Notes: generated by a model from the sequence alone, not told the origin. A DNA stretch of 20,000 nucleotides from an uncultured virus (IMG/VR IMGVR_UViG_3300041955_000566) (IMGVR_UViG_3300041955_000566); one strand, 5' to 3'; counted from the stretch's first letter, positions 1,533 through 20,000 are shown. Numbers and translations are program-made.

Positions 1533-1622
1533 CTATGTGTTCTTTAGTACCATAATAGCAACAATAAAAGCCGCGATCAAAAATGATCCCGCAAGCAAGA
1601 TTACAGATGGTGTTATTTTCAT
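1533..1622 (-). CDS. Small membrane peptide (29 aa)
   Basis: MKITPSVILLAGSFLIAAFIVAIMVLKNT; GGGAGG RBS; ATGA overlap with upstream gene. Confidence 0.55.
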   Translation of the reverse strand: MKITPSVILLAGSFLIAAFIVAIMVLKNT

Positions 1623-1777
1623 ATTCGCCTCCCTTCGCGGCCAAAATTATAAGCTCGCTTCAATGCAGCCATCATTTCCTGAACCCACGCCTCTCGGCGA
1701 TAGCGAATAGTTGCTTCGTCCGGACCACCAGGCCAGTTGTCCGGCAGCAATGCTTCGGCCTCTTGTTTGAAGTTCAT
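1619..1777 (-). CDS. Hypothetical protein (52 aa)
   Basis: MNFKQEAEALLPDNWPGG...; GAGGAAGG RBS; fills the operon gap. Confidence 0.6.
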   Translation of the reverse strand: MNFKQEAEALLPDNWPGGPDEATIRYRREAWVQEMMAALKRAYNFGREGRRI

Positions 1778-1789
1778 GCGCTGCCTTCC

Positions 1790-1972
1790 TCAAGTATTTG
1801 ACCTAAATTCCGCCAACGACGCCCACAACTCGCGTTTGTTCTTCCATTCTCGGTATGGAGTATTAGCAAGCAGTCGGATCATTTCAAGAGCGCGTCCGCG
1901 CAGTTCCGGTGACCAGGTTTCCGGAGAATTGGTAAGCATTTCAATTTTTGCTTCTCTGGCGTCCGGTGTCAT
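1790..1972 (-). CDS. Hypothetical protein
   Basis: MTPDAREAKIEML...; AAGGAAG upstream. Confidence 0.55.
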   Translation of the reverse strand: MTPDAREAKIEMLTNSPETWSPELRGRALEMIRLLANTPYREWKNKRELWASLAEFRSNT

Positions 1973-3461: not shown

Positions 3462-4760
3462 CTATTTTGTTTGCGTCTCAGCGAACATTCCAGCGTCGGC
3501 GTGAATGCGCCGCTCTGCCATGTCCGCATATTCTGGATTGAGTTCGATCAGGATTGCGTTGCGCTTTAGACGATCCGCCACCATGCCGGTCGTTCCTGCA
3601 CCGCCGAACGGGTCGAGTACCGTTCCGCCTTCAGGACAACCGGCCAAGATGCACGGTTCGATCAGCGCGGGTGGGAAGGTGGCGAAGTGGGCCTCAGAGA
3701 ATGGCTGCGTCGTGACGGTCCAAACGCTTCGCTTGTTGCGCTTTTCAAATATGCCGAAATTATTTGCTGGCCCGCGCGGTGCAGATTGGGGATGCGGGTA
3801 GGCATGGGCGGTATAAGTGTCTGTCGCTCGCCCAACGGCTTTCATCGGGCCATTCGTCTTGCCGGGAACGCGCTCGCTACCGCGCTGTTTGGGGACGTTT
3901 TGGCCCAGCCGCTCAATGCTGGCCTGCGAGAGCGGTTCGACGATGGCTTCCTGATCGAAATAATATCGTTCCGACTTTGCCAGCAGAAACAGATACTCAT
4001 GCGCCTTCGTGCAGCGATCGGTGACGCTTTCCGGCATTGGATTTGGCTTCGACCAAATAATGTCCTGCCGTAAATACCAGCCATCGGCGCGAAGGGCGAA
4101 CGCCGTCATCCAAGGAATGCCGATTAAGTCCTTAGCCTTGAGGCCGCTTGCACCATTCCGAACGGGCGCGCGGTTGCCACGTCCAACTTTACCGTCAGAA
4201 CTACCCCGCGCCTCGCTTTGGAGGTCCACACAGGCGCTCGCTCGGCCTCCGCCGTGGTCATAGATATATCCCTGTTTCCCGCAATCTCCGGGCTTGTGCT
4301 GGCCCTTCCGGGCGTCTCTGGCGTAGCTGTCGCCAAGGTTCAGCCAAAGCGTTCCCTCTCGGCGTAATACGCGATGGACCTCTCGGAAAATATCAATGGC
4401 ATGAGCGACATACAGTTCTGGCGTTGGCTCAAGCCCAAACACACCGCGCCAAGCCTTGCAACGCAGGCAGAAAGCGCCAGTTTCAGGATTAAGCGTGATA
4501 TTGTCGGCAAGCTTATCAGTGGCACGGCCAGAATGAAGGCCACCTTCCGCGCCATTCCTCTGACGCTGGCCACTTTTGCCGATTTCGCCCCATGTGTGTT
4601 CCCTTCCGATGCAGGCATCATTGCCGTCCCATATTGACGGCGCGACTCCGTAATCGCGCAAGCCCCAATAAGGAGGAGAAGTCACAACGCAATCGACTGA
4701 GCCGGCCGGCAGCCGTGCCAAAAGTTCTAAGCAATTTCCCTTGAGAATACGGACGGTCAT
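3462..4760 (-). CDS. DNA methyltransferase, N4-C/N6-A beta class
   Basis: VTSPPY catalytic motif, WSKPNPMPES, HFATFP, and VLDPFGGAGTT SAM-binding motif. Confidence 0.95.
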   Translation of the reverse strand: MTVRILKGNCLELLARLPAGSVDCVVTSPPYWGLRDYGVAPSIWDGNDACIGREHTWGEIGKSGQRQRNGAEGGLHSGRATDKLADNITLNPETGAFCLRCKAWRGVFGLEPTPELYVAHAIDIFREVHRVLRREGTLWLNLGDSYARDARKGQHKPGDCGKQGYIYDHGGGRASACVDLQSEARGSSDGKVGRGNRAPVRNGASGLKAKDLIGIPWMTAFALRADGWYLRQDIIWSKPNPMPESVTDRCTKAHEYLFLLAKSERYYFDQEAIVEPLSQASIERLGQNVPKQRGSERVPGKTNGPMKAVGRATDTYTAHAYPHPQSAPRGPANNFGIFEKRNKRSVWTVTTQPFSEAHFATFPPALIEPCILAGCPEGGTVLDPFGGAGTTGMVADRLKRNAILIELNPEYADMAERRIHADAGMFAETQTK

Positions 4761-5383
4761 CGCTTGCCTTTTTCCTTTAGCGCATCATTGATGATCTTGT
4801 GCTTTCCGCCCTTAAAGTTGCCGTTAAAGCTCGATGTAGAGATACCGAACTTAGTGGCGATGTCCTCAATCGAGGCGCGCGGGTTGCGAACCACAAACTT
4901 AGTGATCCGCTGCCGCATCTTTTCATCAACCTTCCGCTCGCGTCCCAACGATGCACCTCTTGCTTTCAACGCGGCCATTCCGGCCTTAGTCCGCTCAATG
5001 GTTAGTTGGCGCTCAAACTCAGCGAATGCACCAGCGATGGCGACGTACAAACGGCCCATTGCCGTTGTAATGTCGAAATTCTCTTGCAGACTTTTGAACG
5101 ACGCGCCAGCTTCCACGATCTGATCAAGCCGCGCATGAAGATCGCGCAATGAACGCGCCAGCCGGTCGAGCCGCCATACCACCAGCGTATCGCCAGGTCG
5201 CAAGTCCTTGATAGCAAGATCGAGTTGTGGGCGATTTTTAGCAGCACCAGAAATCTTTTCCTTGTAGATATTGAGACACCCGATTTTTTCGAGGGCGTCG
5301 GTCTGTAGGCTAAAGACCTGATCTTCGGTCGAGACACGGGCATAGCCGATATACTCGCCTTTGGCTGTTTCGGTCTGCGTCAT
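4757..5383 (-). CDS. Small serine recombinase (resolvase/invertase family) with C-terminal HTH
   Basis: IGYARVST catalytic Ser motif, VVWRLDRLARS, AEFERQLTIERTKAG, C-terminal SIEDIATKFGIS; start 5383 preferred over 5452. Confidence 0.95.
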   Translation of the reverse strand: MTQTETAKGEYIGYARVSTEDQVFSLQTDALEKIGCLNIYKEKISGAAKNRPQLDLAIKDLRPGDTLVVWRLDRLARSLRDLHARLDQIVEAGASFKSLQENFDITTAMGRLYVAIAGAFAEFERQLTIERTKAGMAALKARGASLGRERKVDEKMRQRITKFVVRNPRASIEDIATKFGISTSSFNGNFKGGKHKIINDALKEKGKR

Positions 5384-5493
5384 CGCCAACAACCTAGTTG
5401 GCTGACACGATAAAGTCAACAGCCTAGCGTCCGCCTTTTTGTTGACAGACACAAATTAAAGGTATATGCAGATTTCAAAGGTAGGAGATCGTG
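5384..5493. promoter_or_regulatory. Divergent promoter region / candidate res-like recombination site
   Basis: Five GYCARC-like half-sites in both orientations (5385, 5397, 5401, 5415, 5441); TTGACA at 5442; AGGAG RBS at 5483. Confidence 0.55.
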
Positions 5494-5655
5494 ATGGCAA
5501 TTTCTGACGTTCTATCTGAAGCTATTGAGGAAATTCGTTCCTATCTCAAGGATGATCCCTGCTACGCTGAACCGAACTTCCAAACGCGCTGCAAAAAGCT
5601 CGTAGCCGATATGGAAGCCATGCGGATCGATCTGGATACACCACCGAAACAATAG
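5494..5655 (+). CDS. Array cassette 1, hypothetical (53 aa)
   Basis: MAISDVLSEAIEEIRSYL...PPKQ; AGGAG RBS; TAG lies inside repeat R1. Confidence 0.75.
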   Translation: MAISDVLSEAIEEIRSYLKDDPCYAEPNFQTRCKKLVADMEAMRIDLDTPPKQ

Positions 5656-5666
5656 AGGCCGGAAAC

Positions 5667-6077
5667 ATGGGACAGATGGGAATTGGCGCGATGATCCACA
5701 TGCTCGGCGGCGGTTCCGAGCATTCGGCTTCGGAGTATTATGGCCGCACGATCTGCGGTGCCGAGATCGTGGACAATCGCCTGCGGCTCACCCTGGATGG
5801 CGGCCAAAAGATCGAGATTTGGGACAACGGACAGTCATGCTGCGAGAGCCGCTACATGACGTGCGACGACGATCTTAACTCTCTGTGCGGGCATAAGATC
5901 GTTCGCATCGAGGCGAAGGATGGGCCGAACCAGTCGGCCGACGATGACGAGCACGAAACCTGCTTCGTCGAGGTCGGCACCGACAAGGGTTTTGTCACCC
6001 TCACGAACCACAACGAGCACAACGGTTATTACGGAGGCTTTAGCCTCACGATTACCGAAGTCGCCAATCCACAATAG
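5667..6077 (+). CDS. Cassette 2, conserved phage hypothetical with QSCCE and HNGYYG motifs
   Basis: 136-aa ORF bounded by R1 and R2. Confidence 0.85.
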   Translation: MGQMGIGAMIHMLGGGSEHSASEYYGRTICGAEIVDNRLRLTLDGGQKIEIWDNGQSCCESRYMTCDDDLNSLCGHKIVRIEAKDGPNQSADDDEHETCFVEVGTDKGFVTLTNHNEHNGYYGGFSLTITEVANPQ

Positions 6078-6084
6078 AGGCCAC

Positions 6085-6324
6085 ATGGCTGAGATCGTGA
6101 GCATAAATCGAGAGACAGTGCCGGAATTTATCCGGCGCAATGGTCCTACGCTCACGCATGAGGTAGCTGCAAGATTTTGCATCGACCAAAAAACCGCGCT
6201 CGCTACTTTGAAGGGCCTTCAAGAAATGGGTCACTTAGCTTCGCGGCGCGTCCGGTATTGCGGCGGAGATCAAGCTGGATCGGGAGCCGGATACGAGTGG
6301 ATCGCAATTCCGACAGGCTTTTAA
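6085..6324 (+). CDS. Cassette 3, winged-helix-like protein (79 aa)
   Basis: ATG directly after R2; THEVAARFCIDQKTALATLKGLQEMG. Confidence 0.75.
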   Translation: MAEIVSINRETVPEFIRRNGPTLTHEVAARFCIDQKTALATLKGLQEMGHLASRRVRYCGGDQAGSGAGYEWIAIPTGF

Positions 6325-6338
6325 CAGAAAGGCCGCTG

Positions 6339-6545
6339 ATGACCAATGCCACAGCAGAGCGATTAAATGCGGCGGTCTATAAACATCGCCTGATGTGGAC
6401 TGATCTATCGGCCCGCGTTATGTCAAACGAAGGATGCCCGAAAGAGTTGGCCGATGAAATGGTAGCGCGGCTTATCGAAAAGAAATCATGTCCATTTCCG
6501 GTCGCCATCGCGCTGATTGATCTGATCGTCGAACTCAAACAATAG
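6339..6545 (+). CDS. Cassette 4, hypothetical (68 aa)
   Basis: ATG after R3, stop in R4. Confidence 0.75.
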   Translation: MTNATAERLNAAVYKHRLMWTDLSARVMSNEGCPKELADEMVARLIEKKSCPFPVAIALIDLIVELKQ

Positions 6546-6554
6546 AGGCCGCCG

Positions 6555-6788
6555 ATGCTGAAATACCCCGTAGCCGAAGGTGACAGGCTTATTTCCATTT
6601 CCTATCCCGGCGAGGATTTGGGCAAGACCACATACAAAGTGGGCACCCACGTTTACGGTATTAGCGTTGTCCGGCTTCCTGGCCCAATGGGAGAATACCT
6701 TGCGGCCAACGTAGTGTTTGAAGATGACCGTCCAGACATTATTGCGCCGCTCCACATGCTCCGCAATTTTGAAGTCCTTAACCCATAA
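6555..6788 (+). CDS. Cassette 5, hypothetical (77 aa)
   Basis: Bounded by R4 and R5. Confidence 0.8.
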   Translation: MLKYPVAEGDRLISISYPGEDLGKTTYKVGTHVYGISVVRLPGPMGEYLAANVVFEDDRPDIIAPLHMLRNFEVLNP

Positions 6789-6804
6789 ACGAAAAGGGCC
6801 AACC

Positions 6805-6981
6805 ATGAGCGACGGATTGCAGATGAAGTATTTTGTCCTCAAACCGAAGGGCAATGATCCCTATCATGCAGCCTCGCGAGCGGCGATGGTTGCCTATGCC
6901 GAAGCAATCCGCTCCACCAATCTTGAGCTTTGCGATGACCTACTAAAGTGGGTTATCCGCGAAACGCCTAGTCAACAATAA
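6805..6981 (+). CDS. Cassette 6, phage hypothetical (58 aa)
   Basis: MKYFVLKPKGNDPYHAASRAAMVAYA; bounded by R5 and R6. Confidence 0.8.
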   Translation: MSDGLQMKYFVLKPKGNDPYHAASRAAMVAYAEAIRSTNLELCDDLLKWVIRETPSQQ

Positions 6982-6989
6982 GGCCACTG

Positions 6990-7178
6990 ATGACCGACCT
7001 TACGGATAGCGACATTGTTAACGTCATCAAGGCCGAAAGAGCGGCTGAGAGAGCCGCCGAGCGCGAGCGGTGCGCTAAGATTGCGGACGCCGCCGCGAAG
7101 GGCGCGCTTACCGTGAAGGGCGTCAATCTTCATCACGGAACGGCAGCGGCGATAGCCGAGCGCATCCGTCAACAATAG
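6990..7178 (+). CDS. Cassette 7, hypothetical (62 aa)
   Basis: AERERCAKIAD motif common in small phage proteins; bounded by R6 and R7. Confidence 0.8.
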   Translation: MTDLTDSDIVNVIKAERAAERAAERERCAKIADAAAKGALTVKGVNLHHGTAAAIAERIRQQ

Positions 7179-7187
7179 AGGCCGCCA

Positions 7188-7391
7188 GTGGCACTAACAA
7201 GCAGATTGCAGACAATGCCGCGCTGGCAACGCGCCACGATAGATTTTCTTGGCTTATTTGCTGTCAGCGTGATTGCTATTTATTTTGGCGATGTGTTCCC
7301 TGGTCATAAGCTAATTGTCGGCGGTGTCTGCGGTTATATATGGGGTGCTACAATGTGGTGGCGGTGGGCTTGGATCAACGCAAACAACTGA
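7188..7391 (+). CDS. Cassette 8, two-TM membrane protein (67 aa)
   Basis: Two hydrophobic segments; bounded by R7 and R8. Confidence 0.8.
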   Translation: MALTSRLQTMPRWQRATIDFLGLFAVSVIAIYFGDVFPGHKLIVGGVCGYIWGATMWWRWAWINANN

Positions 7392-7428
7392 AGCCGCCGT
7401 TTGCAACAGGGTTTATATAGGTACAAAT

Positions 7429-7503
7429 CCTCGCAAGAGGTGAGCGCTGGTGCGCCAGGCAAAGCGGATATAGCAGGCTGGAATACCTGCCGCTCTCTCC
7501 CCA
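7429..7503 (+). ncRNA. Cassette 9, candidate structured (tRNA-like) RNA
   Basis: No ORF fits between R8 and R9; stems CCTC-GCAA-GAGG and GAGCG/CGCTC, the latter enclosing CTGG-TGCG-CCAG and GCAGG-CTGGAATA-CCTGC. Confidence 0.4.
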
Positions 7504-7521
7504 ACGATAGAGGCCGCCACG

Positions 7522-7881
7522 ATGGCAAGCCTGATAAAAACATTCAGCGGTACCGGCGACTTTGACGCCATGAGAGACGCAGAGGACTTTTTGAAGCTCG
7601 CTGGCTTTTCTGTCGCCAGCAATCAGCGCGGTGCGCCTCGCGGCATCATGTTCGGAGACTACGCGATCTCAAAATGGCGCAACTTACGCGAGATCGAACG
7701 CCAGAGCCTTCATGGTCAGATGACTGGCGACATGCGATCTGGACCTGTGCGCGTCGAGATTTTCGAGAACGCGCCGCAGGAAGGGAAGTTGGAATTTCAC
7801 AAGACCGCGATAGCACTTCAACTCGCACAAACAATAAGGGCCGCCATTATGACAATCAACAAATATGACCGCCATGACTGA
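7522..7881 (+). CDS. Cassette 10, phage hypothetical (reads through R10)
   Basis: ATG after R9; 119-aa ORF. Confidence 0.8.
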   Translation: MASLIKTFSGTGDFDAMRDAEDFLKLAGFSVASNQRGAPRGIMFGDYAISKWRNLREIERQSLHGQMTGDMRSGPVRVEIFENAPQEGKLEFHKTAIALQLAQTIRAAIMTINKYDRHD

Positions 7882-8227
7882 TCTTTTTGAATATGGCGAG
7901 GCTATCCGTCGGCGTAATGAGGGCATGACGCTGGCAGCTTCTCACTCTCCGTCTTTCGGAGAAGCGGCTTATATTGCACTCATTGCTCTGGCGCAGCGGA
8001 AAGAGTTTATTCATATCGATGATTTTTTGCGCGCTTTTCCAGAACGTCCCAATAGTCCTAATGCGATGGGTTCAGTCTGGCAGCGTGCAATAAAAAACAA
8101 AATCATCAAACATTCAGGGCGAGTAGCGCCTTGCAGGACAGAAGCAAAGAAACATGCCCATCAATATCCGATCTATTGTTCTCTAATTTTTAAACCGATT
8201 ACGGAGACTTCAACATGGTACAAATAG
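7865..8227 (+). CDS. Phage hypothetical protein (start 7865 or 7874)
   Basis: 120-aa ORF continuing the plus-strand operon. Confidence 0.75.
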   Translation: MTAMTDLFEYGEAIRRRNEGMTLAASHSPSFGEAAYIALIALAQRKEFIHIDDFLRAFPERPNSPNAMGSVWQRAIKNKIIKHSGRVAPCRTEAKKHAHQYPIYCSLIFKPITETSTWYK

Positions 8228-8526
8228 TCTATCCTTCCGAAAACATTAGTTCACTACATTCAATAACTCGCTATGAAATAACTCGGCATGAATGCAAGAC
8301 CTGTCGTGGCTGGTTCATCAGCCAACGCACGGACTTTGGCGATGTTCCTTATTGAGTCCGATGTAGAGCTGGCTGTGAAGGCATCATGGTGCCAACTTCT
8401 GTTTCGCAGTCTGCCATTCCGATGTTTGAATGGTATTGTCCAGACAGATCCGAACGTGATGCGCTTCCGAAATTCACGCGCTGGGCTGTCGATGATGGCT
8501 TGCTTCTTCTGCGTCCGCTAACTTAG
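8215..8526 (+). pseudogene. Cys-containing phage protein with one in-frame TGA at 8353-8355
   Basis: GGAG RBS; reads MVQIVYP...HECKTCRGWF...DVPY*VRCRAGCEG...EWYCP...GLLLLRPLT and exactly fills the gap to the convergent gene. Confidence 0.6.
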
Positions 8527-8723
8527 CTTCCGCGCTTTCCTGGAAATGGTGATGGCAGACCACGACGTTTGCCACGTTTGGCTGCCGGAGGCAGCCTGAC
8601 GCCGTCAAATCGTCTCTGGCGCTCGGCATGCAGGACCGGCAGGAAAATTACCTTGGCGGTCTCCGGATTGAGAACTAGAGGCATCCTGCAGCGATGTGGA
8701 AGCCTGACTATATTGTCGGTCAT
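8523..8723 (-). CDS. Hypothetical basic protein
   Basis: MTDNIVRLP...; ATGA overlap with upstream gene. Confidence 0.55.
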   Translation of the reverse strand: MTDNIVRLPHRCRMPLVLNPETAKVIFLPVLHAERQRRFDGVRLPPAAKRGKRRGLPSPFPGKRGS

Positions 8724-9463
8724 ATCAGTCTCGCCGGTTCCGGTGATATCCACTTCTTGGCGTCGGCCTGGATCTGTTCGTAAACTACGGGATGCTGCGC
8801 CTTGAAGTTTGGAAATCGTGGTCCGCGAGTATATCGCCCATCGGTTACGACAAGCCAGCCCTGTCCTGGAGCGATCCAGCGGCGGTGATCGATACCGTGA
8901 TGCTTGAAGTCCTGGCGGGTGACATGACCTCGGCGTTCAAGAGTCACCGCAATTTTTATCGCTTTGATTTTCCAGTCGGTGAGCTGCAGTGGAGCTGATG
9001 CTCCGGCGGCGACATCGGGAACATATTCTGGCAGATCATGGCGTTTGTCATGGGCCAACTCAAACCACTCCTGACGCCATCCCGCTTTCATCGTCGGAAG
9101 ATTGGGATCGAAGACGTTATGCCTGTAGATATATTTTTCGTCGGATCCAGGTGCTGTCACTCGGATGATGGTCAATCCGGCATAAGCGCAGATTTTATCA
9201 AAGCCTCTGGCATCGCCCCAAGGAACCAAAACAGCCCGGCAGTCCGGTCCTGTGGTGTGAACCCACTCGCTCTCGATGGCCTGGTTGATGACGTCCGTAC
9301 TCAGTTTTAGCTTGGCCTGAATTCCGATTTGAAATCCGTCATCCTTGCGAACCAGAAGGATATCCCAGCCAGCCGTCTCGTTATACGCGGTCCAATCATT
9401 GCCGATCGCCGCAATGAAACGGGCGCAGAGTTCGATCTCAGTTTTGAATGCTTTTGATTTCAT
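8720..9463 (-). CDS. Phage protein with PD-(D/E)xK-like nuclease pattern
   Basis: E...GWDILLV...IGIQAK pattern; 247 aa. Confidence 0.6.
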   Translation of the reverse strand: MKSKAFKTEIELCARFIAAIGNDWTAYNETAGWDILLVRKDDGFQIGIQAKLKLSTDVINQAIESEWVHTTGPDCRAVLVPWGDARGFDKICAYAGLTIIRVTAPGSDEKYIYRHNVFDPNLPTMKAGWRQEWFELAHDKRHDLPEYVPDVAAGASAPLQLTDWKIKAIKIAVTLERRGHVTRQDFKHHGIDHRRWIAPGQGWLVVTDGRYTRGPRFPNFKAQHPVVYEQIQADAKKWISPEPARLI

Positions 9464-9750
9464 GAATCACGCAGAAATTTGGCCGTCATCGGATCATACA
9501 ACGGAAATACCGCTGTAACCAGTTCATGCGCAGAAATGCCGACAGCCTTGGACCATGCCGCGTAGAGATCGGGAGGCAGCCGGCAGGCACCGCCTTCAAC
9601 CTGCGAGACGAAGGTATAATGCTTGAACTTGAGCTTGGCCGCGAGATCGCGCTGGGAGAGCCCAGCATTGTGACGATACTTCGCCAGAATATGGCCGGCT
9701 TGGCGCCGCAGTTTAACATTGCCTTTTGTTTTGCGCGTCGAGAAATACAT
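9460..9750 (-). CDS. XRE-family HTH transcriptional regulator
   Basis: RHNAGLSQRDLAAKL...VSQVEGG. Confidence 0.85.
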   Translation of the reverse strand: MYFSTRKTKGNVKLRRQAGHILAKYRHNAGLSQRDLAAKLKFKHYTFVSQVEGGACRLPPDLYAAWSKAVGISAHELVTAVFPLYDPMTAKFLRDS

Positions 9751-10388
9751 TATCCTATCCTTATAAAAAACCGAGCGATGTCAGATGAAACATTAAGATC
9801 GTCTCGCTTGAACTTATACTTTCCGATGATTTCCAATGCCAACTTGCGCATTTCTTCGGCCATCTTCGCATTCGAGATCGCGACTTCGATGTTATCGATC
9901 TGACGTTCTAGTGAACGTTCGATAGGACGCTCCTTATCCTGACTACTGAATCGTTCGGTCATGTCTCGCAGAAAAGCGATAGTTTTATTATGATGCTTGA
10001 TTTCAGCCGCTAACTTATGAAGCTCCTCATCTATCATCGCGCGGAATTCAGCAAACAGATCGCGCCGTCTCGGATCCTTTTCATAAGCAAATCCTGAGTT
10101 GATGTAATCCATCAGGATTGGGCCAATGAATCTTTCGATGACCTGTAAGGCAGCTACGCGACGGTTGTCTGGCTTATCATCCTCGATTGTTCCGGTTCGA
10201 TCGAACTTCTCCCGGCGCACCGGATCCAGCAAACACATCTCGGCCCGACGACTTCGCTGGAATGCATCGACATTGCCGCCAGCATCTGGATGTGTCCGCT
10301 TCGCTGCACGACGGCCAGCCTTCTTGATCTCGGCTGCGGTGGCATCCCTGGATATACCTAATTCTTCATAGGGATCGATGCGTTTCAT
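9750..10388 (-). CDS. J-domain (DnaJ-like) protein
   Basis: DPYEELGISRDATAAEIKKA...THPD...LLDPVRREKFDRTG. Confidence 0.9.
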   Translation of the reverse strand: MKRIDPYEELGISRDATAAEIKKAGRRAAKRTHPDAGGNVDAFQRSRRAEMCLLDPVRREKFDRTGTIEDDKPDNRRVAALQVIERFIGPILMDYINSGFAYEKDPRRRDLFAEFRAMIDEELHKLAAEIKHHNKTIAFLRDMTERFSSQDKERPIERSLERQIDNIEVAISNAKMAEEMRKLALEIIGKYKFKRDDLNVSSDIARFFIRIG

Positions 10389-10392
10389 GGTT

Positions 10393-10608
10393 TCAATAGA
10401 TCTTCACGATTTTGAGCTGCTGAATGATATTCTTGCCGAGGCCACCGACACCAAATATGAAGTTGAGTTCAAAACCGGCATCCTTCGCTTCATCAAGAAC
10501 TTGTAGAATTGGTCCTGCCGCAGCAATGGCCTTCTTTCTAAGCTCCTCGGCGATCTCAGCATCGGGCTTTGTCGGAACCAGTCGTGTAACTTGCTCATTC
10601 ATCATCAA
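10393..10608 (-). CDS. Hypothetical protein
   Basis: ORF tiling the operon with ATGA overlap. Confidence 0.65.
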   Translation of the reverse strand: MMMNEQVTRLVPTKPDAEIAEELRKKAIAAAGPILQVLDEAKDAGFELNFIFGVGGLGKNIIQQLKIVKIY

Positions 10609-10970
10609 TTCCTTTTTTCTGTTAGCGGCGGCTGTTCGAGCTGCGGTGCAACACGCCGATGTTCGGGACCACCCAATTTGATACGGACCAACTTAGCTCT
10701 GGCGAAGTCAGGCTCCCTATAAGGTAGCCCAAGACGCTTGGCCTGCCCTTTGGCGGATGCCTGCGCGAAGGCGACGAAATTCGGCATCGCAATTTGGATC
10801 GCAGCATTCATTCGCATAGCACAACGTCGGCAAAGCTTGAGTCCGAGCACAATGCCGATGTCGTATCGTGGATTGAAAGGTTGATCCACGGCGATCGGCA
10901 TTATGATCTTGGGTACGACCTCAGCCTTTCGGCTGCAATTTCTGCTGTCGCAAATAGTCAATGAATTCAT
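10605..10970 (-). CDS. Hypothetical protein with Cys pairs
   Basis: Start MNSLTICD at 10970 with GGAG RBS and ATGA overlap. Confidence 0.6.
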   Translation of the reverse strand: MNSLTICDSRNCSRKAEVVPKIIMPIAVDQPFNPRYDIGIVLGLKLCRRCAMRMNAAIQIAMPNFVAFAQASAKGQAKRLGLPYREPDFARAKLVRIKLGGPEHRRVAPQLEQPPLTEKRN

Positions 10971-12550: not shown

Positions 12551-13666
12551 ATGACTACATTAATGCAGGCCAGCCATCAATGGGCTACCCGTCCGGATGA
12601 CGAACGCTTCACTTCGCTTGACGACATGGTGGCGCATTTCAATCGCATCAAAAACGAATCCTGCGAGGTCATCGTGCCATCGCGGCGCATCCATGTTCTG
12701 CCACAACCTGACCACAAGGGCCTCGAAATCGTCGGTCCCAATGGTCATCCCTATGTCCCCACTCACTGGTCGTTTGGTCAGATCGCTTCGCTGGCGGAAG
12801 CGCCAGCTGGTTATCTGCGTACCATGCCGGCCGAAATCGCGGCCGACTGCATTAATTACGGTCTGCAGTTCAAGCGGAGCATTGAGGACGTCGGTGTTCT
12901 TCTTCATAAAACCGCCGATAATGTTCCGGCTGAATTGCCGGGCAGCGTCAATACTATGCGTGCGGCGACTGGACCGAATTATGGCCGGGTGTGGAATCAA
13001 GAGATTGTTTCGACACTGCAGCATCGCTTCGGTGATGGTGTCACCGGCGATTAGCGAGTTCCTGGTGAGTTCGGCAAAGCAGTGAAGGTCACCAAAGCCA
13101 ACACAACCTTGTTCGCATCGGACCGGGATATGTTTGTCTTCCTGGCCGATGAAGTGAATCGTATCGAGTTGCCCGGTCGTCGCGCCGGCATGATGGGCAC
13201 CTTTGCCCGTGGTTTCTTCACTTGGAACAGCGAGGTCGGCAGCAAGACGCTCGGTATCGCCAGCTTTCTGTTTGATTATACCTGCTGCAACCGTATCGTG
13301 TGGGATGTCCAAGGGTTCAAGGAAATCACTATCCGCCACACCGCATCGGCTCCCGACAAATGGCTCGATGAGGTCACACCAGTTCTGAAAGCTTACTCAC
13401 AGGGCAACAGTGCTCCCGTGATCGATGCCATCAAAGCGGCGCAAGCCAAGCGCATCGATGATGTCGAGAAGTTTCTCGGCGAGCGCTTCAGCAAACGGAT
13501 GGCACAACCCATGATGGCGCTGCATCAAGTCGAAGAGCAACGCCAGATAGAGACATTGTGGGATGCTGCCACGGCGGCGACCGCTTACGCCCGGTCGATT
13601 GAGCATCAAGATGCCCGCGTCGATCTCGAACGCAAGGCTGGGGCAGTTCTCGCGCTCGCTGCCTAA
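12551..13666 (+). pseudogene. DUF932-like protein split by a single in-frame TAG at 13052-13054
   Basis: ORFs 12551-13054 and 13082-13666 share a frame: GDGVTGD*RVPGEFG; motifs ASDRDMFVFL, RGFFTWNSEVG, C.NRIVW, IRHT. Confidence 0.75.
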
Positions 13667-15601: not shown

Positions 15602-15931
15602 TCAGGCTGTCTTTAAGCGCCGGTATTCGACTGGTCGCCCTTCGCGGCCAGCTCGATCGATGCCTTTTCGCATCCCTTCGCTGATCCCGTGGTCCTCATA
15701 AACGATCGTTGCTTCGGCGACGCGACCCCAAGCCAGCCCGGCTTCGATGCCGGCTCGGCGTTCCTCCGGCTTGGCATCATCGAGTATTCCCGGCCACAAG
15801 AGATGGCTCGCTATCGGGCTCTCCGATCTCCGCAGGCTGTCCAGCATGCACTGCTTTGCGTACCTTACGTTTGCGTCCGTTTCCTCTGGTGTCCGCCCGC
15901 GGAAAGGTGATTCCAAAATCACAAGTCGCAT
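15602..15931 (-). CDS. Phage protein, nucleoside deoxyribosyltransferase-like fold (DUF7768/DUF4406-like)
   Basis: VILESPFRG, PIASHLL, LDD..PEER..GI, GISEGM motifs. Confidence 0.7.
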   Translation of the reverse strand: MRLVILESPFRGRTPEETDANVRYAKQCMLDSLRRSESPIASHLLWPGILDDAKPEERRAGIEAGLAWGRVAEATIVYEDHGISEGMRKGIDRAGREGRPVEYRRLKTA

Positions 15932-16482: not shown

Positions 16483-16703
16483 GCGGTTCTCCCTTCTGCA
16501 ATAATCACTCGCTGATAAACAGGCTCATTGTTCTGGCCGCCACGGATGACACGGCCTTCCTCTCGGAGCTGCGCCAGCGCGCTGCGGACTGTTCTGATAT
16601 TCCCGATTTCGGCGCGGTCGACTATGGCTTGGACCGGAGTCCAAGTATCGATGTCGAGAACATCCTCGACGGCGTTCATTGCGGTATCGCTGACCAATCC
16701 CAT
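16479..16703 (-). CDS. Winged-helix-like protein
   Basis: IRTVRSALAQLREEGRV. Confidence 0.65.
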   Translation of the reverse strand: MGLVSDTAMNAVEDVLDIDTWTPVQAIVDRAEIGNIRTVRSALAQLREEGRVIRGGQNNEPVYQRVIIAEGRTA

Positions 16704-16969
16704 TACGGCACCAGCCCGAGAACGCAGTACCCATCATGCAGCCCGATCGATTCCCCATCGTCTCCGCGTGAAATGTAAACGATGCGGCGCTCGACTTTGC
16801 GGCCGGTGTATGCGCCGACGCCCGATCTAAATTCCTCGAGAACCACGATGTCACCGACCGCAAAGCCGCGGTCGTCCTTCCTGATCTCATAGGTTTTTGT
16901 GCCGTCCTGGACGGCATCAAACCATTTCGGCCATATCTTCAGTTCGTGTGTTTTGCTCATTGACTTCAT
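16703..16969 (-). CDS. ASCH/PUA (DUF3850-like) protein
   Basis: HELKIWPKWFDAVQDGTKTYEIRKDDRGFAVGD. Confidence 0.85.
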   Translation of the reverse strand: MKSMSKTHELKIWPKWFDAVQDGTKTYEIRKDDRGFAVGDIVVLEEFRSGVGAYTGRKVERRIVYISRGDDGESIGLHDGYCVLGLVP

Positions 16970-18619: not shown

Positions 18620-18904
18620 CTAATACTCATTTGACACCATATATTGATCGTGTTCCTGATGATGGCAGGCTGAGCAAAGCCAAACGACAACTAATGGTTT
18701 TGTATGATCAGGATGATGCATTTCTAATTTGCTTTGCTTTACACCATTGCACCGAATTATTGGTTTTGGTGTACAGCCACATCGTTCGCATGCGGTGGCT
18801 GGAATTATTTTACCTAGTTGCTTCATTCTGTGTGCAAATCTTCTAGCTTTTTGCCTAGCCGCTGCACGCTTTTTGTTTTCTATTATGCGAAGATCACAAG
18901 ACAT
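18620..18904 (-). CDS. HNH-like endonuclease
   Basis: CERCG...EMHHPDHTKPLVVVWLCSACHHQEH. Confidence 0.75.
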   Translation of the reverse strand: MSCDLRIIENKKRAAARQKARRFAHRMKQLGKIIPATACERCGCTPKPIIRCNGVKQSKLEMHHPDHTKPLVVVWLCSACHHQEHDQYMVSNEY

Positions 18905-20000
18905 TCTTACCTCCGAAGAGCGGACCGTGGTCTTCCGGCTTGCCGGCCATCTTCGCTTTGATAGATTCTCTGGCGCGCTCCTCTGGTCCGGCTAAACACA
19001 ACGCCATGCGGCGGCGGATGTCGGCTTGATATTCATCTTCGCGCTCGATCAGAACGGCGCTCATCCCTTCTCGCCATGCGGCTTCGCCAGTGGTGCCGGT
19101 GCCGGCAAATGGATCGAGCACCAACCCGCGCGGTGGCGTTACCAGCCGCACAAGATATTGCATCAAATCGAGTGGCTTAACGGTTGGGTGTTTGGAACCA
19201 AGGCGATCATCGGAGTCGGCTTTGGCGGTGTAAAACGTTCTTTTTCCGCAACCCGATTCCCCAACTTCCACGCTCATCTCTATGATGTCGAATGTGGCAG
19301 CTTCGACAAAACGATCTGACTTCAAAAGGCTTATCGTAATCGTCGTGATGCCAGTCGGCTTTGGGATTGCCACACACATCACACGGTCTAGCTTTGCCGT
19401 GATGCTTTCTGGCGGCAACCCGCGCAAGAACCTTTTTTCTATATTCTGGATCGTCGCGATAAGCAGTGTTTCTATCTCGTCTAATTGCTGCACCGAGACG
19501 CTCATATCTTGTCCCCGGTAACTTTGTTTTTGCAGAGCCAATCTTAGCGTTGACACTTCCACTACATGATTTAGAGCAGAAACGACGCGCTCGCTTTTCA
19601 GCCCTAAACTCCCTTCCACATTGTTCGCATCGTTTATCGAATGGCATAATTCATCCTGTTTTACTTGATAGAAAAATCTGGCGGCACTTCCTTCATCACC
19701 ACCGCCGAATCCATTTAAGCAATCGCCGTGGCCATACATTCCGCCACCGCCCTTGCTATCACCTATATTGCCGCGAGCGTGGTCACTCTCAGGAAACGCC
19801 GCCACCACTTCATCGCTGCCGTCATGGATGACGTTGGCTGGCCATCTACCTGTTTCAGAGCCGACTACAATAGTATTATTGCCAACATCGCCGGTCTGCC
19901 ATGGTCGTTTACCTAAGCCAAAACCACCTGATCTTTCATCGGTTGCCTCAATTCTACAACCATCTATATTCAGCGCCCCCGTTCCCCATTTCAGAACATT
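18894..20000 (-). CDS. DNA methyltransferase (N6/N4 beta class), 5' end outside window
   Basis: Frame is open from 20000: WGTGALNIDGCRI, GRWPANVIHDGS, SAARFFY, HPTVKPLDLM, VLDPFAGTGTT. Confidence 0.92.
   Translation of the reverse strand, partial: NVLKWGTGALNIDGCRIEATDERSGGFGLGKRPWQTGDVGNNTIVVGSETGRWPANVIHDGSDEVVAAFPESDHARGNIGDSKGGGGMYGHGDCLNGFGGGDEGSAARFFYQVKQDELCHSINDANNVEGSLGLKSERVVSALNHVVEVSTLRLALQKQSYRGQDMSVSVQQLDEIETLLIATIQNIEKRFLRGLPPESITAKLDRVMCVAIPKPTGITTITISLLKSDRFVEAATFDIIEMSVEVGESGCGKRTFYTAKADSDDRLGSKHPTVKPLDLMQYLVRLVTPPRGLVLDPFAGTGTTGEAAWREGMSAVLIEREDEYQADIRRRMALCLAGPEERARESIKAKMAGKPEDHGPLFGGKNVL
19207..19647 (-). CDS. Zn-finger HNH-like endonuclease nested in another frame of the methyltransferase
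   Basis: CEQCGREF...FCSKSC and CDVCG...WHHDDYDKPFEVRSFCRSCHIRHH; AGGA RBS. Confidence 0.8.
   Translation of the reverse strand: MPFDKRCEQCGREFRAEKRARRFCSKSCSGSVNAKIGSAKTKLPGTRYERLGAAIRRDRNTAYRDDPEYRKKVLARVAARKHHGKARPCDVCGNPKADWHHDDYDKPFEVRSFCRSCHIRHHRDERGSWGIGLRKKNVLHRQSRLR

Follow-up and report, generated by a model that had tools for sequence, protein, structure and literature searches.

In the 20,000-nucleotide stretch of DNA from an uncultured virus (IMG/VR IMGVR_UViG_3300041955_000566) that is analysed here, and that is called the window throughout, ten small genes and one non-coding unit stand in a row on the plus strand, joined by ten co-oriented copies of a short asymmetric repeat and divergent from the gene for a small serine recombinase. 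As a run, the repeat is limited to this array. Arrays in related contigs carry related repeats around wholly different genes, and in one pair of relatives whole units have been exchanged at the repeat. On balance it seems probable to us that the repeat is a connector for coupled translation that doubles as a seam for exchange, with the recombinase as a separate module.

Anatomy of the array

The array (5491-8227, plus strand) holds ten open reading frames (ORFs) of 54-136 aa and a 130-nt non-coding unit, and is divergent from the recombinase gene. An earlier note on this DNA, made from the sequence alone, had counted nine ORFs and one non-coding unit; the units are real, but the array runs one gene further, to 8227. 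The ten repeat sites listed in that note, here called junctions, are all present on the plus strand. Units and junctions follow one another in this order:

5491..5655, plus strand: cassette 1, 54 aa; no array gene ahead of it; an ordinary AGGAG upstream, without the junction motif; weak match to phrog_29161
5648..5662, plus strand: junction 1, AACAATAGAGGCCGG
5667..6077, plus strand: cassette 2, 136 aa; DUF7448 (PF24240, E 1.3e-17)
6070..6084, plus strand: junction 2, CACAATAGAGGCCAC
6085..6324, plus strand: cassette 3, 79 aa; no family
6323..6337, plus strand: junction 3, AACAGAAAGGCCGCT
6339..6545, plus strand: cassette 4, 68 aa; no family
6538..6553, plus strand: junction 4, AACAATAGAGGCCGCC, the exact consensus
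6555..6788, plus strand: cassette 5, 77 aa; no family
6788..6802, plus strand: junction 5, AACGAAAAGGGCCAA
6805..6981, plus strand: cassette 6, 58 aa; weak match to phrog_9572
6974..6988, plus strand: junction 6, AACAATAAGGCCACT
6990..7178, plus strand: cassette 7, 62 aa
7171..7186, plus strand: junction 7, AACAATAGAGGCCGCC, the exact consensus
7188..7391, plus strand: cassette 8, 67 aa; GTG start; hydrophobic by reading of the translation
7383..7397, plus strand: junction 8, AACAACTGAAGCCGC, degenerate and weak, with three mismatches
7392..7521, plus strand: non-coding unit between junctions 8 and 9, without an ORF having a start codon
7503..7517, plus strand: junction 9, AACGATAGAGGCCGC
7522..7881, plus strand: cassette 9, 119 aa; continues across junction 10 into the start of cassette 10
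7830..7844, plus strand: junction 10, AACAATAAGGGCCGC, inside the 3' end of ORF 7522-7881 and out of the usual frame
7865..8227, plus strand: cassette 10, 120 aa; last gene of the array

The array ORFs are mutually unrelated, as the earlier note had supposed, no two proteins of the window being paired by blastp at E <= 1e-4. Only one of the ten cassettes passes the curated Pfam cut-off (DUF7448), three of the ten have PHROG matches, every one to a family without tested function, and NCBIfam gave no name to any of them; the anti-defence role of the cargo that the earlier note raised is a conjecture. Five proteins do end in glutamine through CAA-TAG or CAA-TAA (5491-5655, 5667-6077, 6339-6545, 6805-6981 and 6990-7178). 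After cassette 10 comes a 490-nt gap holding two terminator-like hairpins. Within the non-coding unit (7392-7521), the frame closed by the TAG in the 7503 site runs open over 29 codons, none of them ATG, GTG or TTG; the unit folds no better than shuffles (fold z-score 0.08), and Rfam found nothing in it, the sole match in the scanned interval 5300-8700 being at chance level and elsewhere. The unit is possibly a decayed cassette. In ORF 7522-7881, the usual stop frame of junction 10 is off by one base, which suggests an indel; coverage there is about 4x.

The junction motif

The consensus of the ten co-oriented junctions is AACAATAGAGGCCGCC, 15-16 nt in length. When the window was searched with AACAATAGAGGCCGC, allowing up to three mismatches, eight matches were obtained, compared with a mean of 0.55 (maximum 4) in 200 shuffles, and seven of the eight fall at 5648-7844; the copies with a one-base gap, at 6323, 6788 and 6974, were recovered by a looser pattern. 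By information content, A-6, A-3 and the G-G-C-C core are invariant or nearly so, and C-5, A-1 and the purines before GGCC are strong. The junction is asymmetric, with no dyad symmetry beyond GGCC.

It had been proposed that the repeat supplies both the stop of the upstream gene and the ribosome-binding site of the next. This applies to most copies: a stop codon lies in or directly before the motif at seven junctions, stop and start are 7-16 nt apart, and GGCC lies 2-6 nt from the start at eight junctions, which places GAGG or AAGG at Shine-Dalgarno distance, 4-8 nt ahead of that start. It does not extend to every copy, as one has no start after it and one is out of frame; the copy at 7830 is the out-of-frame one, and that at 7383 is weak. 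The further conserved letters, AACA before the Shine-Dalgarno element and GCC(GCC) after it, appear unexplained by pairing with 16S rRNA. A scan of the array revealed neither promoter-like nor terminator-like sites on the plus strand at any junction.

The claim that no run of the motif occurs elsewhere in the window is correct insofar as other genes use ordinary sites, the upstream regions of the other 27 listed genes being heterogeneous and several of them of GGAG type, but a lone copy does exist at 1560-1574 (plus strand; AACAATAAAAGCCGC, two mismatches). It stands 8 nt ahead of a 72-aa ORF (1583-1801, plus strand), a putative gene that overlaps a minus-strand ORF (1372-1644) in a neighbourhood where the ORFs taken as genes run on the minus strand.

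Related arrays and their linkage to the recombinase

Relatives were gathered with the recombinase as query, 80 loci apiece being taken from the genome, viral and metagenome contig collections, and a strict junction was defined as a stop within 12 nt, two purines followed by GGCC, and a start within 11 nt that leads into an open frame of 40 codons or more. The window has a cluster of at least five strict junctions within 3 kb, and so have the loci L070, L097, L100, L103 (which is also L256), L119, L282 and L005, the last of which was found by an exact 16-mer search and the others through the recombinase. In every array locus fetched through the recombinase, the array begins beside that gene and is divergent from it. 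The junctions of these relatives carry the GGCC core and their cargo is wholly different from that of the window, which supports the cassette-like array described in the earlier note.

The linkage counts cover loci that have 2 kb or more of flank. At least three junctions lie on the divergent side in 8/36 loci whose recombinase is at least 50% identical to that of the window, vs 1/120 loci below 50%. The other sides of the closer loci gave 0/36 (upstream, same strand) and 0/33 (downstream), and downstream of the more distant recombinases the count was 3/132. Fewer than three junctions were present at 28 of the 36 close loci. Some loci are duplicates, L098 and L253 being the same contig, as are L103 and L256, and L091-L094 and L252 being near-identical. 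The genome contigs contained no recombinase above 59% identity and no array except that of L070, and the metagenome contigs no relative of the window recombinase closer than 70%. Searches with the motif itself gave little more: the exact 16-mer returned eight viral loci, with a true array in L005 only; a 15-nt pattern gave clusters of at least five junctions in 0/120 loci among the matches listed, which numbered at least 120; and a two-junction pattern returned 38 loci with clusters of three only (L453 and L482) and no recombinase within 5 kb. The 63 loci of DUF7448 homologues, used as a control, had no such junction clusters. Compared with the phage collection, the array region of L097 matched over only 58 bp of the recombinase gene.

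Five whole viral records (G001-G005) were also compared. Nine of the 12 strict junctions of G001 (64 kb, rated complete) lie within 3.7 kb, four of the five in G002 lie inside the array, and G003 and G004 have a single cluster each, above 20 and 23 strict hits that are scattered as background, the background being greater in records of higher G+C; G005 has a short run of three junctions. The motif is limited to one array in four of these whole records and is not a genome-wide start signal. In the complete records G001 and G003, this recombinase is present and a tyrosine integrase is absent. Seven junctions, with an exact AAACAATAGAGGCCGCCATG among them, make up the array of the provirus G004 (72 kb, 90% complete), which lacks a PF00239 gene; it encodes a CI-like repressor as well as a tyrosine integrase, and a RecT-like/PDDEXK nuclease pair lies upstream in the same operon as the array. 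Between the window and the four whole records that have a recombinase, little is common beyond that enzyme, namely one or two further proteins.

In L100 (record G003), a second operon (7376-10873, plus strand) lies across the recombinase from the array and has a different junction, …TAAGGAGCCA…ATG, in five copies, so that one phage can carry two junction dialects in two operons. A restriction-site explanation of GGCC was dropped, GGCC being neither notably avoided nor enriched in these genomes.

Cargo turnover and junction dialects

No homologue of a window cassette was found in 17 related loci (blastp, E <= 1e-5), two window cassettes occur together in 0/231 loci, and between arrays only ORFs antisense to the recombinase match. 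Homologues found elsewhere come with other boundaries. Among the top 16 of the 63 DUF7448 loci, the arrangement stop-purine-GGCC-start occurs at either end in 0/16, with GGAG-type sites instead. Cassette 9 has one viral homologue (L487, 93 aa; 55% over residues 4-80 only), and the boundaries in its operon differ from the junction, reading ...AAATAGCCATG or ...GGAGTAGCCATG. For cassette 10 no viral relative was found, and its nearest Atlas clusters, which are a lead only, are viral hypothetical proteins. Judged from these sequences, the junction would belong to the slot in the array and not to the cargo gene.

The operon of L487, in an unrelated phage, has compact boundaries of its own at 4980-8310 (GGGAAATAGCAATG, AGCAAATAGCCATG, AAGGAGTAGCCATG and GAGGAGTAGTCATG), in which the final codons of the upstream gene contain the ribosome site and 2 nt separate the stop from the start.

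Likeness among junctions is 0.485 within arrays vs 0.387 between arrays, which was reached by 0/2000 label permutations, and outside (A/G)(A/G)GGCC the dialects vary widely:

L070: AACGCAYGAAAGGCCCGAA.GATG
L119: AGTGAAGAAAGGGCCGCCCA, alternating with GAAACAGTAGRGGCCGCC
L282: CAAACTGAGCGACAGGAAAGCCCCGCACCATG, 32 nt
L103: CACGAAAGGCCTCTAAGATG

When the arrays are compared with themselves, the junctions (14-32 bp) are the sole internal repeats, except for one duplicated cassette in L119. Junctions between unrelated genes are 94-100% identical over up to 32 nt; near-identity over 20-32 nt in such places exceeds what a ribosome site needs and suggests copying.

Exchange of units at the junction

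The duplicated cassette of L119 encodes 128 aa, and its two copies are 89% identical over 418 bp, with the identity running from junction to junction. Exchange between contigs is seen in L070 and L493, the latter a different viral contig that was found by a search with the L070 dialect, that is 48% complete, and that starts 633 nt before its first junction. Two units are common to both: one of 225 bp with a 66-aa ORF (99.1% identity) and one of 219 bp that is non-coding (95.4%). Beyond these units, the two contigs match only in two places limited to the junction and over one stretch of 71 bp (80%). The units stand in the same order, 1.9 kb apart (six or seven cassettes) in L070 and 0.5 kb apart (about two) in L493, and what lies between them is unrelated. 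At all four boundaries, identity starts at GGCC/AGGCC on the left and ends at GGCC/GGCCCG on the right, at most 2 nt from the GGCC core. The unit is thus made up of spacer, start, ORF, stop, purine run and GGCC, and these boundaries show cassette-wise exchange in relatives, not in the window. Breakpoints at the repeat are thus seen in this pair, whose identity ends inside the junction, and in no case in the window itself.

The exchanged non-coding unit (6516-6734 in the reverse complement of L070, 2253-2461 in L493) is 210-220 nt long and has the same junctions at its ends as the genes have. It has a closing stem of 17-18 bp (ATCACCTAGCGCAGACG / CGTCTGCGCTAGGTGAT) and a fold z-score of -2.2, and Rfam found no family in L493 or L070.

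The recombinase and its inverted repeat

Two features lie at the head of the array:

4757..5383, minus strand: small serine recombinase, Gin/Hin invertase-like, 208 aa from the ATG at 5383; PF00239, phrog_125
5415..5446, no strand: inverted repeat GTCAACA-N18-TGTTGAC (32 bp), between recombinase and array; its right arm overlaps a TTGACA hexamer

The recombinase matches PF00239 with an E-value of 7.8e-42 (143 bits vs a cut-off of 23.3), as befits the resolvase/invertase gene that had been recognized beside the array, and phrog_125 (DNA invertase) with 4.5e-60. Its best solved relative is the Gin invertase (4m6f, E 1.5e-36), in which YVRVSTNDQ, the catalytic-serine motif, is aligned with YARVSTEDQ; gamma-delta resolvase is aligned over the catalytic domain (E 1.2e-23), and at the C-terminus the helix-turn-helix matches HTH_32 and HTH_24 are below the Pfam cut-offs. 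The closest relatives in cultured phages have at most 46% identity. A longer version of the protein, starting at the GTG at 5452, would span the inverted repeat. Pfam scans of 38 window ORFs gave no match to Phage_integrase.

The 32-bp inverted repeat is unique in the 20-kb window, where none is expected, and since no second copy exists there, no segment that could be inverted or resolved is defined by it. L089, L102 and L103 have equivalents of this repeat, and other relatives have related CTTGAC...GTCAAG repeats. The solved sites of Gin, Hin and resolvases are dyads bound by dimers, and in Tn3 resolvase binds res between divergent genes, a place at which a dimeric enzyme is to be expected. 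The repeat at 5415-5446 is therefore a candidate recombinase or operator site, and a better candidate than the junction. Its half-site GTCAACA occurs in two of the ten junctions, and over the whole window in 12 places vs 12.8 expected, which is the level of chance. The promoter scan flagged no sigma-70 site at the intergenic TTGACA/TATATG pair, the spacer being 15 nt, and a promoter there is accordingly put forward as a conjecture. The recombinase genes of L095, L096, L098, L091-L094, L252 and L254 have 80-86% nucleotide identity over 400-650 bp, with unrelated sequence on both flanks, and the gene itself thus behaves as an exchangeable mosaic module.

Comparison with known systems

The layout recalls that of an integron, in that a recombinase is divergent from promoterless, co-oriented and unrelated cassettes whose boundaries lie inside a short conserved core, and in that the cassettes vary between relatives with the boundary in the core of the site (L070/L493 only). 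In integrons, however, attC sites are imperfect palindromes of about 60-140 bp at the 3' end of the cassette. The array has no attC-like imperfect palindrome, its gaps being 7-16 nt and its repeat 15-16 nt and asymmetric; the enzyme is a serine recombinase (PF00239) and not an IntI-type tyrosine recombinase; and the junction stays with the array rather than travelling with the gene. With neither a tyrosine IntI nor attC, both of which the earlier note had already reported as absent, the array falls outside the definition of an integron. The Gin/Hin/Cin/Pin invertases and the gamma-delta/Tn3 resolvases share the catalytic domain and, as res does in Tn3, a dyad site between divergent genes, but the 32-bp site has no paired second copy in the 20-kb window.

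A closer likeness is to the start-associated sequences (SAS) of Cluster K mycobacteriophages. The available portions of Pope et al. 2011 (PMC3203893) describe SAS as a 13-bp asymmetric motif in one orientation, 3-7 bp before starts, among non-structural genes only, which combines AGGAG with conserved letters unable to pair and sometimes holds the upstream stop; according to the portions of PMC12699233 at hand, the function of SAS was still untested in 2025. Going by those accounts, the two have in common a short asymmetric motif in about 10-19 copies and one orientation, a few nt before (mostly ATG) starts, with a Shine-Dalgarno core, which may hold the upstream TAG and is kept before different gene families; the array motif has further conserved letters that may, like those of SAS, be unable to pair with 16S rRNA. 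Limitation to part of the genome is a further likeness, the junction forming a single cluster in each of G001-G004. The differences are that the SAS consensus is GGGATAGGAGCCC vs AACAATAGAGGCCGCC for the array, in other phages and hosts; that no extended inverted repeats (extended SAS, ESAS) were seen in the array; that the array copies are contiguous and beside a serine recombinase; and that whole-unit exchange is documented for relatives of the array, whereas none was met for SAS in the accessible parts of PMC3203893 and PMC12699233. Elsewhere in the window, a CAAATAGGAG-type sequence precedes three non-array genes (upstream of 3449 on the minus strand, and of 12551 and 13737 on the plus strand), with the TAG overlapping the ribosome site; these sequences resemble both the array junction and the SAS core ATAGGAG.

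The promoter-early stem-loop (PeSL) elements of T4-type phages offer a parallel for exchange. In the portions of Arbiol et al. 2010 (PMC2839356) available, these repeated regulatory motifs flank small non-essential genes in hyperplastic regions, and recombination between them, with no dedicated site-specific recombinase involved, reshuffles genes, adds or removes them and produces mini-circles. Short repeated regulatory motifs that flank small genes are common to both, and modular exchange is seen in relatives of the array. As far as that account goes, a PeSL comprises a promoter and a terminator stem-loop, giving each gene its own transcription unit, whereas the array junction is a stop and a ribosome site within one operon. 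For phages, the literature, in the portions at hand, described neither cassettes handled by a serine recombinase nor junction arrays of this kind.

Possible explanations for the array

On the explanation that we hold to be probable, the array would be an early operon of accessory genes in an uncultured phage or phage-like element, expressed from a single message that starts in the gap beside the recombinase. Each junction would end the upstream protein (TAG/TAA) and set GAGG/AAGG for the next start, such that ribosomes terminate and restart gene by gene, and would also be the seam at which whole units, each beginning with the spacer behind one GGCC and reaching to the following one, are swapped between phages. 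For exchange, the repeated junctions would serve as the homology or microhomology over which general or phage-encoded functions recombine, in the way of the PeSLs of T4-type phages, and the Gin-like recombinase would be a separate mosaic module, most likely acting on, and perhaps repressing from, the repeat at 5415-5446. A start-associated translational signal, which the earlier note had named as its fallback, fits the anatomy. Several observations weigh against this combination. Arrays are clearly enriched beside this recombinase subfamily, on the divergent side only (8/36, among loci fetched through the recombinase), which a pure bystander role does not predict; the crossovers, resolved to 6-14 nt and all including GGCC, fit site-specific crossover equally with short-homology recombination; exchange is seen in one relative pair with another dialect, not in the lineage of the window, and no relative in any collection searched shares more than one window cassette; and near-identical junctions of 20-32 nt between unrelated genes go beyond what a ribosome site needs.

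In the proposal of the earlier note, the neighbouring serine recombinase would excise, capture or shuffle cassettes site-specifically at the junctions in the manner of an integron. The layout of recombinase and divergent array recurs in relatives with wholly different cargo; arrays stand on the divergent side in 8/36 loci with recombinases of at least 50% identity vs 1/120 below; exchanged units end in or at GGCC, and serine recombinases cut at palindromic dinucleotides such as the GC in the middle of it; the complete records G001 and G003 have the recombinase and lack a tyrosine integrase; and the half-site GTCAACA is found in two of ten junctions. Against this, the half-site matches are at chance level (12 vs 12.8), the junction lacks dyad symmetry beyond GGCC although the solved sites of the family are dyads, and a separate, unique dyad site is present and conserved in relatives. 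The junctions are all direct repeats, which invertase-type enzymes normally do not recombine; 28/36 close recombinase loci have fewer than three junctions; the G004 provirus has its seven junctions without a PF00239 gene; and the recombinase gene travels as its own module (80-86% identity over 400-650 bp, unrelated flanks). The proposal in its integron-like form has, in our estimation, a low probability, and catalysis of cassette exchange by this recombinase is rather unlikely. Only slightly better are the prospects that the GGCC-centred junctions are true sites of some dedicated enzyme, for which the Gin-like recombinase would be the obvious candidate. The junction could also be a translational signal alone, with selection for termination and reinitiation making boundaries alike and only whole genes surviving transfer. 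The spacing of stop, ribosome site and start is typical of coupled genes, any viable gene-sized transfer must break in the junction when gaps are 7-16 nt, and related 'AAATAGGAG' arrangements lie ahead of three other window genes. Yet the conserved letters outside the ribosome site, together with dialects of up to 32 nt that are 94-100% identical, are unlikely to have arisen by convergence, and a non-coding unit is bounded by the same junctions, in the window as in L070/L493; we consider this account unlikely, if the strongest of the alternatives. Joint shut-off of the operon by a phage regulator that binds or cuts at the junction, be it a translational repressor or an RNase after the model of RegA and RegB of T4, would agree with a motif that is limited to one operon, lies on the ribosome site and includes letters for which 16S pairing seems not to account. 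The SAS authors, in the available part of PMC3203893, likewise consider that a factor encoded by the host or the phage may bind. No candidate factor co-occurs with the arrays, however, the recombinase being the only protein common to them; the dialects differ widely outside (A/G)(A/G)GGCC; and neither structure nor RNA family was found (Rfam, folding). We give such a regulator as small a chance as integron-like shuffling by the recombinase.

Genomic setting

By appearance, the window comes from a phage or phage-like element, of which it covers the region of early, replication and accessory genes. Its genes include two DNA methyltransferases, a DUF1376 replication-initiation-like gene, and ParB-like, ASCH/DUF3850, DnaJ-domain and helix-turn-helix regulator genes, with many PHROG matches. 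The neighbour of the recombinase gene is:

3462..4760, minus strand: DNA methyltransferase (PF01555, E 2.9e-42; phrog_67), co-directional with the recombinase gene and overlapping its end

Four minus-strand ORFs (3462-4760, 15602-15931, 16703-16969 and 18894-20000) comprise two N6/N4 DNA methyltransferases, a DUF7768 protein (nucleoside 2-deoxyribosyltransferase-like) and an ASCH/DUF3850 protein, which together may be a DNA-modification and anti-restriction toolkit. The adjacent plus-strand ORFs 12551-13054 and 13082-13666 match positions 41-168 and 173-386 of the 391 of phrog_1362, and are either a split gene or the result of a frameshift from low-coverage assembly.

No record of the phage collection has DNA similarity to the window or the array. 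The stretch, or part of it, is present in four wetland metagenome runs (Logan contigs, about 4x depth), two of which span only about 3600-5470 at 2-3x depth, with the array outside. Joints, insertions and deletions were not seen in the wetland runs, in which contigs of about 4x cannot show rare forms, and there is no RNA run among the listed holders of the stretch.

Implications

Little is understood of how phages acquire and shed their tiny accessory genes, and the function of SAS, described in 2011, is still untested; the array links both questions. A SAS-type junction is kept across phages whose cargo is fully replaced, and the whole units exchanged between two relatives, one unit being non-coding and structured, were swapped exactly at the junction. 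The recurring Gin-like neighbour poses a testable question, namely whether the recombinase is catalyst or bystander. If the reading with a dedicated enzyme were true, this would be integron-like capture and shuffling of coding and non-coding micro-cassettes at sites of about 15 nt that double as ribosome-binding sites. If exchange at the junction is general, junctions would be standard connectors by which any small gene could be plugged into a ready expression slot, which would explain the fast turnover of early genes and would give a rule for unit boundaries in the genomes of uncultured phages.

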